A DNA stretch of 63,427 bases, counting the filler, from Collodictyon triciliatum (Eukaryota), in NCBI GenBank assembly GCA_043381765.1. It is 4 parts of 4 records of this genome, joined end to end, with 100 filler letters (N's around TTAATTAATTAA, not from the genome) between each part and the next. Parts side by side here need not be neighbours in the genome. Positions count along the whole stretch, not along the records: positions 1 to 15,420 come from JBHJMP010001673.1; 3 more parts are not named here. One strand, given 5' to 3'. The position numbers were made by a program, and so were the translations under genes. The first letter of the stretch is position 1; every line of letters begins with the position of its first letter. Positions 11,601 to 15,420 of the stretch are shown here, piece by piece. Below the pieces are notes generated by a model. That model saw nothing but the letters and a program-made list of their open reading frames with translations. It did not search any database and was not told where the DNA came from.

Positions 11601-14600
11601 TATTAGCACAGTCGAAGTACCATCCTTGACATCTTCATGCATCTATGATGGACTGAGTCCATGTCTGGCTACTCTCACAGTCCCAGTATCCACATTCACA
11701 ACTACAGATGCCACTATCACCCCTGTAGTATTATTTGCCACCCAAACCATCACATTATCATCAGCCACGCTCGTCGCCTTACCCAACTATGGCGTCAATC
11801 CATCTGCAGGAATGAAATTGCAGCTGCCACAGAAACCCAACCTACCTTCATCCACATTCACATCTTCGCTGACAGCCTTCACAAACGGAAGAGTGCTCGA
11901 AGGCTTCAATGTTGTCATCAATATACCATCGTCTGTGGCGTCCATTGTGAGCATCAGCGGAGATGGCAAATTCTCGGGTGCAACAAATATTCAACAAAGC
12001 TCTGCATCGATTGTGTGGACTCGCCAAAGTGGCGTCAGCGACTCGTCTGCCACAGGAGCGGTCAACGTCGCAACAATTACATGGAAGATGAACGATTCGC
12101 CCGCTCAGAGTAGTGGTGAAGTCAGCTTCGTAATCAAACAGATGACAGACGTCCAGAACATACCGATAGTCAGCGAGTCAACAAACGGAATCGTGTTTGA
12201 TATCACACAGTCAAGCGAGACAGGATATATTGTAGTCGCTCAAGACTCTGTAAGAGGTCACTTCATCACTTCTCTTCAGCAGCAAATCGTCAACACAGCC
12301 GTAATCAACAAACAAAGCGTGGCTGTACCACTGAAGGTTATAGAGTTCTACGAGTTTCAATCACCAAAAGATATTACCTCACAAGTATCATGCACCAGCT
12401 CCGACCCACAAGTCGCACCAATCCAAGGCTGTACTATTGTCATGACAGGAAGTGAGACATCCGGCTCAAACTTCGTGTCGCTTTCATACAACGCTGCAGC
12501 CACCAGCGTCCGCGTATGGTACCCATCAGCTCCCATCAATATAAGCACCCAGGATAGAATACTCAATCGTATTTCTGACTTCAAAACGCCTGATTGCTCT
12601 GGCCTAAATTATCAAAGTAGCCAAATTTTTGCGACTGTGTCGTTTGTGAGCGGAAGTGATAGTTTCTCTGCCGATGTATCCAAGTTGATTTCGCTGGATG
12701 TATCTGACAGCGGGGTATTGAGTATAGAAGGTAACACAGCAACTGGCATTGTACCTGGGCAAGCAACAGTGACAGTCAATGGATTCCCGTCAAACTCCGA
12801 AGTATTTTCAGTCACAGATGATGACATCACATTATTGAAACTTACACCGATAGTGTTTACCGATGTATCGATAATTTCAGTGACACCAAGCAGTACATTG
12901 ACACCCACATCTATTAGTAGCGTGAAGGTCTCTGTGTCTCAAAACCTGGACTTTGAAGGCAAGGTGGGATACGTTGTAGTGTACGCATACTTTTCTGATG
13001 ACACACGAATGGAGGTGCAAGAGTCGGATGGACTCATTATATCATCAAGCAATACTTCTATCTCGGTCCTAAACACACCACTCAGAGTTGTTTCTAACTC
13101 TAATGGCTGTGGATACTTTGTTAATGTGGAATGGAACTCCTGTGGCAAGAGACTTGGTGATGGACTCGGACTCGTCAACTTGGAGCTACCCAAGATTACT
13201 CAAATAACAGTTACAATCACTAATACTAAAATCACGCTCGCAAATGACCCTTCTACGACCGTTGGTATACCCACAAAGGGTGACTTGAAAGTAATATGTA
13301 CATTTGAGAATGGCAAACAAAGTGATTATACACTCGACTCAAGAACAAATTATGATGATGCCACAGGTGATGCAAATGATATAATTCAAGTCGAAAAAAC
13401 AACCACATCTTCCAGTGTAACAAATGTTTACGTCATCGCCACTGGGAAAGGGTTCGGAGTAGCCAAGATTAAAGTTACAACTACGAACGCACCTAGTTTA
13501 CAGGGAAGTGTAGATGTTGAAGTGATCGGATTTGCATCATTGAGTGCATCATCGAGCCCATACCCAGTATACACTGGTTCCAGCTCAGTATCGTTGACAA
13601 CGCTCAAGCGATATGAGTGTACCCAAGTTTATCAAAGAGCAAGTCTCGCTTTGTCCATGACCCTTACAGATGGTACCGTGCATACCATCACTTCAAAATC
13701 ATCCACTGTATTCTCAGTTCCTGTTGCACAAGCCAGCGTTCTGATAATCAAAGATAAGACCATCCTCGAGCCAACAGGAACGAACTTTGGGGTTGTCATA
13801 GTCACTGCGACCTATGGTGATGTGTCAACCACATTAAACATCGAGGTTGCCGACCTGGCTGTCAGTGCAACATCAATTGCAACAACATTTCCATCCACAT
13901 ACTCGAGTATAATCGGAGCATCAACACAAAGTCTGACTTCAAGTGCAATATTTCAAGATGGAACAAGACATCCGACTGCCCACTCTATCACAGGGCTACT
14001 ATCTTACACAAGTGACGACCCAAGCTCAATCACGTTGGACAACACAGGAACAGCGACCATCCAGGCGAACTCTATGAGCATTGTCAAGTTAACGTCATCT
14101 ACATGCTATGGAGTCGTAGGAACATCAGACACATACGCAAATCTGAGCCCTGCGGTGGGTGATGCCGATATTGGAAGCACAAGTGGCCTTGTTCTTAGCA
14201 ACATAGCAGTTGGAGCAAGCTTAACAGTTCCTCTTCGAGTAAATACCGGAACAAAAGCTCTTGGTAGTATCGATGTCAGTCTAGTTTATGATGCGGAAAT
14301 ATTTGATGTAACATCATACTCAACTGGGAGTGGGTGGCCAGGCGGGCAACTTGAAGTCACCTTGAACGACCCACCAGGAGTCATTCGCATTGTGGGTGCA
14401 ACTAGTCCAACCAGCAATTCTAAAGGAACATTAGAAATAACGAGACTAGTGATTAGAAGTAAGCAAAATGGAATGACCCAATTCACCGGATTTATCACGA
14501 AGATGTTGGCCAATGACGCATCGTCTTCGTCGATTGGAAGTGTTCTTCAGCCGGGACAGACTAGAGCAATAGTTGCGGGAAATGCATGGATCAAAAGTGG

Positions 14601-15420
14601 AACAGGAGTTAACTCAAGGGCCTCAAGAATCCAAGAATGGGTGACGTCTCAAAAGCAACCAAAAATTGCTGATGAATTAAATATGAGGATAGGAGTACCG
14701 TGTAACCCTTCGCTCATACTTGGAAACACAGATGGAGATTGCGAGTTCTCTGTCGGTGATGTTCAGTTCACTTTGAGATACCTTGCGGGACTTGTTACGA
14801 CACCTATACTGCCATATCAATCAAAATACTTGGATGCAGATAAAAATGGGGCCATTCAAGTACAAGACGCTATATACTTGATAAGGGTGTTGGCCAATAA
14901 GTGGCGATTTTTCAGTGTCGCTACCATCGCACCAACAACATCCAGTTCGCATGCCCAAGTTTCTATTGACTCACAGACAGCTGATATGGCCTATTCTTCA
15001 GCCAAAACATCTTATGAAATAATTTTCCTGACTACACTAAACAAAAATATCCAAATAACGGAAGGAACAAACAAGCAAATAATACCAGAAGGATTTAAAG
15101 TAACAGCATCAAACTATAATAATGGAACTTTTGCTGTCAAAGGGGATGCAATAACGTCTGAATTGATAGATATATCCTTGCATCTGACGACATTCGATAG
15201 TCTGGGACAAACATCCAATGACCGTGACGTAACATTTTACCAAGGAGTCGGAGGTAGCTATATCAAATACACATCAATAGATGCGAAATATGACGCTTCT
15301 CAGTCACAGTCGCAGTCGCACTCTCAGTCTCAGTCTCAATCTCAGTCTCAGTCTCAGTCTCAGTCTCAGTCTCAGTCTCAGTCTCAGTCTCAGTCTCAGT
15401 CTCAGTCTCAGTCTCAGTCT
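8643..15420 (+). CDS. Giant secreted/surface protein: signal peptide, Ser/Gln-rich stalk, TMEM132-like cohesin + Ig-like (BIG) region, second cohesin, dockerin; 3' truncated at scaffold end
   Basis: Exons 8643 (or 8688)-9231, 9367-9436 and 9549->15420 join in frame through GT-AG introns. Signal peptide MYGAWLTFAWVLLIASTASC. TMEM132-like motifs IVNTAVINKQSVAVPLKV, DITSQVSCTSSDPQV, VRVWYPSAPINISTQDRILNRI, YQSSQIFATVSF, FSDDTRM. Cohesin-like VGASLTVPLRVNTG..LGSIDVSLVYDAEIFDV. Dockerin-like GNTDGDCEFSVGDV...DADKNGAIQVQDA. Confidence 0.85.
10285..10395 (+). repeat. Coding 12-bp tandem repeat (SDIP)n
   Basis: (GATATCCCATCC)n in frame. Confidence 0.9.
10640..11220 (+). repeat. Coding (SQ)n dipeptide tracts; a further tract at 15298-15420
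   Basis: TCTCAA/TCTCAG/TCGCAG hexamers in frame. Confidence 0.95.

Follow-up and report, generated by a model that had tools for sequence, protein, structure and literature searches.

What does a dockerin do when it stands in the same chain as two cohesins? The question is raised by a gene of Collodictyon triciliatum (GenBank assembly GCA_043381765.1), located on the plus strand of contig C1673 (JBHJMP010001673.1) at the start of a 63,427-nucleotide stretch of joined contig pieces, hereafter the window, to which all coordinates refer. The gene encodes a TMEM132-like protein. A first-pass annotation of the window had placed a TMEM132-like core, a second cohesin and a bacterial-type dockerin within 11812-14900, and suggested that the chains could polymerise head to tail or recruit dockerin-tagged enzymes. 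Sections of PMC6030884 call the five-domain TMEM132 architecture early holozoan and leave the partner of its cohesin open; they report no dockerin in vertebrates, and they place the cohesin-dockerin bond among the strongest between receptor and ligand (>120 pN). We lean towards a model in which the dockerin of the Collodictyon protein docks on the cohesin that precedes it (cohesin 2), the linker between the two would be cut, and the clasp would hold together the fragments of a long secreted surface protein.

A TMEM132-like cassette with two cohesins and a type I dockerin

The cassette spans ~11230 to 15297 and thus extends past the dockerin. Behind a Ser/Gln stalk, cohesin 1 is preceded by a beta-rich segment and separated from cohesin 2 by six BIG domains; a linker then leads to the type I dockerin, after which come a beta-sandwich and a Ser-Gln repeat. 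The features are listed below with their basis; model confidence is given as the predicted local distance difference test (pLDDT).

9549-11229, plus strand: low-complexity stalk of ~557 amino acids, 31% Ser and 18% Gln, with Ser-Gln repeats at its end (~10620-11220); composition
11230-11799, plus strand: Cys-containing beta-rich segment and beta-sandwich (~11479-11775) upstream of cohesin 1; AlphaFold2 model, pLDDT 91
11800-12246, plus strand: cohesin 1, in the TMEM132-type position; fold match to 6kgc_A
12244-14148, plus strand: six BIG/Ig-like domains, the first matching Pfam Ig_TMEM132_4th (E 1.8e-12); Pfam and internal profile matches
14140-14175, plus strand: highly conserved lead-in to cohesin 2; over 227 aligned cassettes, N 95%, D 92%, D 99% and G 96%
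14152-14607, plus strand: cohesin 2, type I fold; Pfam PF00963 and fold match
14596-14712, plus strand: linker of 39 residues, of low model confidence; pLDDT 47-54 over residues 161-180
14713-14904, plus strand: dockerin of type I, the motifs of its two calcium loops starting at 14722 and 14833; fold and family profile
14905-15297, plus strand: beta-sandwich following the dockerin, as across the family; high pLDDT
15298-15420, plus strand: second Ser-Gln repeat, entering an assembly gap; sequence

For cohesin 2 the match to Pfam PF00963 clears the cut-off (E 5e-9; 36.9 bits, with 24.1 required), and the model of this domain superimposes on the type I cohesin 6kgc_A with Z 14.8 and a root mean square deviation (rmsd) of 2.2 over 133 aligned residues. 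Cohesin 1, for which no Pfam cohesin match was obtained, has a model (pLDDT 91) that aligns with the same structure almost as well (Z 14.4, rmsd 2.5, 134 aligned). The dockerin model matches the Xyn10B dockerin 2ccl_B over 62/62 residues (Z 10.5, rmsd 1.6). Taken as a single sequence, the dockerin stays below the Pfam Dockerin_1 cut-off (14.6 versus 22.9 bits), and a Pfam dockerin match at E <= 0.01 was seen in 10/45 aligned family members; a profile of these 45 sequences finds bacterial dockerins at E 7e-8 and generic EF-hand proteins at 0.45-0.65. Generic EF-hand identity was rejected on the strength of the 2ccl_B fold match and this profile preference. Both F-hand loops carry D/N at positions 1, 3 and 5 and D at position 12, the last being invariant (100%) in both loops over the 227 cassettes. 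The Ser/Thr pair typical of Clostridium thermocellum dockerins is absent, and the alignment places VG and VQ there instead.

We conclude that two cohesin folds and a true type I dockerin occur in one spliced, secreted protein. The core, the second cohesin and the bacterial-type dockerin of the first-pass annotation were all borne out, and its positions for the calcium-loop motifs are exact. The domain-library matches it had anticipated were obtained for Ig_TMEM132_4th and PF00963 and failed for the other two modules, cohesin 1 going unmatched and Dockerin_1 remaining under its cut-off.

Between these modules the BIG repeats, whose boundaries were set by eye, gave profile-profile probabilities of 97.7% (repeats 2 and 5), 95.5% (4 and 5) and 91.1% (2 and 6); by this comparison, repeats 2 and 5 are clear homologues. 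The beta-sandwich ahead of cohesin 1 occupies the place of the TMEM132 "conserved region", where no Pfam TMEM132 model matched, and shows a weak structural match to an alpha-2-macroglobulin domain (Z 8.7). Its counterpart after the dockerin resembles a macroglobulin domain of complement C5, again weakly (Z 8.4). The lead-in at 14140-14175 is conserved above most of cohesin 2 itself, and could provide a further calcium site or latch onto the dockerin. Searched with the core, the PDB returned 0 sequence matches and a word-based protein search returned 1.

Covariation points to cohesin 2 as the partner of the dockerin

The relatives counted here and below are the 150 that were listed among 484 representatives found outside this genome at E <= 0.001. 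Among 234 dockerins, 227 sit no more than 250 residues after a cohesin 2 (194 proteins), and 6 of the remaining 7 lie within the first 90 residues of their record. A single-chain model of cohesin 2, the linker, the dockerin and the next domain is compact, with the linker alone uncertain (pLDDT 91.9, predicted template modelling score (pTM) 0.89).

Covariation was measured as mean-field coupling over 227 cassettes. The strongest coupling of the whole alignment is inter-domain, linking cohesin V85 to dockerin A252 (z 10.8; maxima of 4.8-5.3 in four shuffled pairings), with small/large size swaps in 201/227 rows. It is followed by L123-G206, S43-D198 and P78-R256 and, lower, by D45-V205. In the model, the coupled cohesin residues map to three strands that we regard as the canonical binding face. 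On the other side, the Xyn10B counterparts of dockerin A252, G206 and V205 in the alignment are L56, T12 and S11, which are given as mode II contacts in part of PMC5864761. When 175 cassettes with both cohesins were analysed, the top z was 10.6 for cohesin 2 with the dockerin and 5.3 for cohesin 1 with the dockerin, compared to 6.1 for a cohesin 1-cohesin 2 control.

Several points weigh against this pairing. Because the search that yielded the homologues used both domains as its query, the co-occurrence of cohesin 2 and dockerin is partly built in; pTM is an indirect measure of docking, and AlphaFold knows solved cohesin-dockerin pairs. The V85-A252 pair fails a phylogeny-independent test (6 independent pairs, p 1) and its coupling may therefore be inflated by shared ancestry, and the next couplings (z 6-7.5) are close to the control maximum. 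Taken together, the covariation favours cohesin 2 over cohesin 1 as the partner. Calcium binding by the dockerin and its docking on the adjacent cohesin 2 are probable, the likely points of contact being the first helix of the dockerin and the end of the third, as in bacterial binding mode II.

Candidate cut sites in the linkers of relatives

After removal of six cluster-member duplicates and of identical linkers, 222 distinct linkers were compared: 27 from this genome, 17 short ones (<=12 residues) and 178 long ones. In the long linkers outside the genome, RX[KR]R occurs in 115/178, [KR]R in 156/178, and two separate [KR]R in 128/178. Control windows of the same length from the same cassettes (8900 for RX[KR]R) contain these motifs at 0.1%, 4.9% and 0.3%, respectively. 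Composition shuffles of the linkers gave 20.3 +/- 4.0 for RX[KR]R, and 0/500 reached 115. These linker rows are related by descent, and the counts are not independent events. The basic residues peak 5-8 residues past the cohesin and 4-8 residues ahead of the first dockerin-side Cys. Convertase specificity predicts avoidance of Pro after the site, and Pro was found there in 1/311 cases, with 26.5 expected. Short linkers have cut sites in 0/17, three of these proteins coming from bacterial metagenome-assembled genomes (MAGs). Proteins found later conform to the same pattern: two dibasic sites are present in 3/3 long linkers, and none in 3/3 short ones.

There is thus a good case that a secretory-pathway protease would cut the linker at both ends in most eukaryotic relatives. 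Cleavage is not universal, the dibasic site being absent from 22/178 long linkers, which counts against a general rule; for site-1-type RxL motifs the overall count of 56 is no enrichment over the shuffles (47.8). The multi-cassette proteins P0045, P0085, P0145, P0109 and P0048 have basic cut sites in some linkers and none in others. Since site-bearing and site-free linkers coexist in the same proteins, whether a linker is cut seems to be decided for each cassette separately.

Linkers of the Collodictyon lineage

In this genome the linkers are 33-72 residues long. A single Arg, RK or KK is found at the same two linker places in this lineage (63% and 65%). In the dereplicated linkers of the lineage together with that of Diphylleia, a basic residue is present at both ends in 11/13 (shuffle mean 6.3, p 0.008). 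The window linker has an RASR at 14617-14628, the only RXXR in the cassette, and a second Arg at 14686-14688, five residues before the Cys; both Args sit where the relatives have convertase-type sites.

A number of observations in the genome itself weigh against cleavage. RX[KR]R occurs in 0/27 of its linkers, [KR]R in 2/27 and RXXR in 4/27, with no excess over shuffles. A furin or kexin gene was not found (PF01483, PF16470; two intron-blind searches, no candidates), and the protease searches gave only site-1-protease fragments and secreted subtilases. The end windows behind the 11/13 count were chosen post hoc, and a basic residue is also present in 74% of mid-linker windows. Whether the linker of the window protein is cut, as predicted from these residues, appears to us evenly poised. 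Among the subtilase loci recorded in the genome (L051-L058), six are genes with long single open frames and two are fragments, and L057 matches human site-1 protease (E 2e-18).

These facts feed the main rival to a cut and clasped protein. According to it the clasp forms in cis and the linker stays uncut in this lineage, the joint serving as a mechanical fuse that would open under load, release ~39 hidden residues and reclose. The lack of canonical furin sites and the failure of the convertase searches both fit an uncut linker, as do the compactness of the single-chain model and the quick tree described below, where the closest group consists of bacterial-type cassettes whose linkers are short and free of sites. 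Such a fuse is harder to reconcile with the basic residues kept at both linker ends over 13 divergent paralogs, in which the middle of the linker varies, and with the Diphylleia protein, nested among those paralogs, which has a KR site at the second linker position. We regard the uncut fuse as possible, at a probability well short of even.

The cassette family in this genome and elsewhere

The cassette belongs to an expanded family, and the genome contains 34 matches to the cohesin 2-dockerin piece. In a dockerin-only search of the genome, 28/28 matches lie inside such cassettes; this search missed one divergent dockerin (L043) found by the family profile, and very divergent ones could escape it. 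PF00404 (Dockerin_1) has 0 matches over its cut-off in the genome. A weak Dockerin_1 match outside cassettes (G000:C6919:1652-1765, E 0.027) is under that cut-off.

Many paralog contigs start and end in Ser-Gln repeats, a REJ-like stalk stands beside the cassette in ten loci, a GPS motif is present in L037 and L046 as well as in the relative P0003, and in L026 one cassette runs into the start of a second. Because paralogs have these Ser-Gln ends, REJ-like stalks, GPS motifs and tandem cassettes, we think it probable that the window cassette forms the outer unit of a longer chain with a membrane anchor. At the paralog locus L028/L029 (G000:C505) the cassette is followed by different domains, presumably IPT/TIG-like judging by eye, and then by a REJ-like region.

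An organism name is carried by 6/30 of the relatives looked up. The best match among those listed comes from Diphylleia rotans; this protein contains REJ and GPS and nests among the paralogs of this genome in a quick tree; other named relatives come from the haptophytes Prymnesium parvum, Diacronema lutheri and Pavlovales. Many relatives have cadherin repeats. P0171 combines the cassette with a 7tm_2 domain of the adhesion GPCR type, and there are two RRRR sites in its linker. At least two cassettes are present in 38/143 relatives and at least three in 18/143, with up to four per chain. The EukProt proteins P0084, P0079 and P0106 have cohesin 2-type domains with no dockerin detected within 250 residues; these cohesins are possible free sockets.

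Whole TMEM132-like cassettes with a dockerin are also held by the Deltaproteobacteria and Myxococcales MAG proteins P0044, P0143 and P0148 (L059:137-6748). The linkers of the bacterial MAG cassettes have 3-11 residues, and may be too short for a cis clasp. NCBIfam, run on 16 short-linker proteins, gave one MYXO-CTERM match just over the cut-off, one weak unrelated match and 14 blanks; bacterial origin is shown for three short-linker proteins and we infer it for the others. Of the searches of genome contigs, only the one with P0044 found the MAG of its query, from Myxococcales; the one with P0143 found nothing, and the one with P0014 found only Cys-rich repeats in two MAGs, neither of which shows the cassette. 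Viral contigs, searched with P0014 and alignment A1, contained no relative.

The quick tree, built from 50 chosen cassettes, has four well-supported groups, and one bacterial-type group adjoins the Collodictyon lineage. It splits the bacterial-type cassettes in two. A single bacterial clade is not rejected by the approximately unbiased (AU) test (p 0.287), and therefore no donor or direction of transfer is claimed. Judged from these sequences, the TMEM132-type cassette exists outside Holozoa and in bacterial MAGs. The expectation that similar architectures occur elsewhere proved correct, with cadherin-bearing proteins, haptophytes, Diphylleia and bacterial MAGs as examples, and the ancestral TMEM132 state suggested along with it is plausible.

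Other roles for the dockerin

Could a surface lattice arise instead, in line with the first-pass annotation, from intact chains assembled head to tail, each offering its dockerin to cohesin 1 (or cohesin 2) of its neighbour? Cohesin 1 has a true cohesin fold, the covariation of cohesin 2 with the dockerin cannot separate cis from trans among identical chains, and relatives with linkers of 3-11 residues may be unable to clasp in cis. A lattice through cohesin 1 is not supported: the covariation of cohesin 1 with the dockerin does not exceed the control, the top coupling lies with cohesin 2, and the single chain is compact; parts of PMC6030884 indicate that animals retain cohesin 1 without a detectable dockerin. 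Linkers of 33-72 residues would permit a cis pair, which local concentration would favour. We consider the lattice unlikely. It is possible that chains are joined by cohesin-dockerin joints all the same, but after linker cleavage and through cohesin 2.

It is still less likely that the dockerin is a calcium-rigidified spacer binding neither cohesin. The missing Ser/Thr pair, replaced by VG and VQ, would suit such a spacer, as would the failure of the top coupling in the phylogeny-independent test; a spacer would leave unexplained the near-obligate adjacency of cohesin 2 and dockerin and the coincidence of the top couplings with known contact positions, and the conserved double cut sites of the relatives would sever the chain unless it were held. 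A cellulosome-like scaffold recruiting dockerin-tagged enzymes, to which the two cohesins per cassette and the lack of a known partner for cohesin 1 might point, is very improbable given that every dockerin matched in the genome search lies in a cassette and Dockerin_1 yields nothing over its cut-off.

Gene model and locus

The 5' part of the gene was modelled as follows.

8643-8747, plus strand: start codon and signal-peptide-like leader of 35 amino acids; hydrophobic stretch judged by eye, with an in-frame join to the large open reading frame (ORF)
8748-9231, plus strand: N-terminal domain of ~160 amino acids, the remainder of exon 1; spliced model
9232-9366, plus strand: intron 1, 135 nt, GT-AG; joint in contigs of runs X1 and X2
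9367-9436, plus strand: exon 2, ending in the dibasic RQPRR (9417-9431); spliced model
9437-9548, plus strand: intron 2, 112 nt, GT-AG; joint in contigs of runs X1 and X2

Both introns were predicted from sequence first, and the exact joints were then found in contigs of 2/4 runs examined; the RNA status of X1 and X2 is a guess of the tool used, and runs X3 and X5 span only short pieces of the 5' stretch. The spliced model has 2177 stop-free codons. Before splicing the leader lies in a frame different from that of the main ORF (9535-15468), which holds the cassette. A leader-like stretch thus exists, as had been predicted, but it is located upstream and spliced in, not within 11812-14900. Of the core words sampled, 28-42% are present in three freshwater metatranscriptome runs, a measure of word sharing only; runs X6-X20, with small shares, did not enter the analysis. 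Based on the leader, the intron joints in run contigs and the metatranscriptome word matches, we conclude that the gene codes for a eukaryotic protein that is expressed and secreted, its end lying beyond the contig. For the N-terminal domain there was no Pfam match better than E 0.3, the best atlas score was 0.75, and no counterpart was found in the paralog loci fetched. Cleavage at RQPRR could free this domain; KR or RR motifs are also present in the N-terminal parts of some paralogs.

The contig ends at 15420, and an assembly gap at 15421 cuts the gene, so that its 3' end is missing and the final codons of the ORF fall in the gap. No membrane anchor is visible because of this truncation; an anchor was seen in paralogs alone. 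Positions 15421-15520 are an assembly gap with a short spacer joining contigs C1673 and C1674, and the DNA past 15521 is not shown to be the true continuation of the gene. Other genes in the window, a WD40 protein (27803-29797, minus strand), a piece of an amino acid permease-family gene (51644-52150, minus strand) and an M28 peptidase (60995-61615, minus strand), show no sign of relation to the cassette gene.

Discussion

The protein has the order of leader, domain, cohesin and BIG in common with the TMEM132, coherin, lefftyrin and hedgling cassettes as described in part of PMC6030884, and Ig_TMEM132_4th passes. Compared to TMEM132, it has six BIG domains, not three, and in addition a second cohesin, a dockerin, a further beta-sandwich and Ser-Gln stalks; in TMEM132, three BIG domains are directly followed by a membrane helix and, inside, by PP1 and WIRS motifs, an arrangement that was not found here. 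We call the protein TMEM132-like, and not TMEM132, because three more BIG domains, cohesin 2 and the dockerin replace the helix after the third BIG. Unlike coherin, lefftyrin and hedgling, it has no cadherin repeat in the part seen here (Pfam scan of 11221-15297; the C-terminus of the gene is missing). With the clostridial type I pairs (CipA cohesin 2 with Xyn10B dockerin, 1OHZ/2CCL) it shares the folds, the calcium loops and covarying positions that match mode II. In contrast to these pairs, the partners adjoin in one eukaryotic precursor, with one pair per cassette, and no enzyme with a dockerin was found in the genome; a cellulosome scaffoldin has cohesins that recruit separate dockerin-bearing enzymes, an arrangement that is not seen here. 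Overall, this is a TMEM132-like cassette, neither a TMEM132 member nor a cellulosome.

In the Notch S1/heterodimerisation domain, in SEA-domain mucins and in GAIN/GPS proteins the ectodomain is cut in secretion and held non-covalently. The proposed joint resembles them as a cut-and-held ectodomain releasable by force or calcium loss, and differs from them in that it would consist of two separately folded bacterial-type modules, would have a spacer excised by two sites, and repeats. The paralogs additionally have a GPS site closer to the membrane.

The mechanism that we consider somewhat better than an even bet can be outlined as follows. The dockerin would bind calcium and dock on the preceding cohesin 2, and a secretory-pathway protease would cut the floppy linker at both ends, removing the spacer. 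The outer part (stalk, cohesin 1, BIG domains and cohesin 2) would then stay on the inner part (the dockerin onward) via the clasp alone. To judge by the paralogs, the inner part might lead, perhaps through further cassettes, to a REJ-GAIN-transmembrane stalk. Such a joint would be strong and calcium-dependent but detachable: under load, or when calcium is lost, it could open and shed the outer part, with a possible role in adhesion, prey capture or sensing. In multi-cassette relatives, inner pieces would begin with a dockerin and end with a cohesin, making exchange or growth possible.

A search of the literature, whose sources were covered in part, turned up no eukaryotic in-chain cohesin-dockerin pair and no cleavage between the two; older choanoflagellate or sponge work may show co-occurrence. 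The co-occurrence of both domains may thus be on record already, a double cut site being less likely to be; what the finding adds, and what lends itself better to testing, is the linker motif.

If the clasp model is true, eukaryotic cohesins would gain a partner and a job, left open in the relevant part of PMC6030884. A further route, beside those of Notch, SEA and GAIN, would lead to a cut-but-clasped receptor, and part of the earlier assembly idea would survive by another route, through cut multi-cassette chains. More tentatively, and with the odds against it as the sequences stand, processed surface proteins held by cohesin-dockerin heterodimerisation may be widespread, their units snapping together, swapping between paralogs and forming non-covalent, force-resistant filaments on protists and early-branching animals, with animal TMEM132 as a remnant after loss of the joint.

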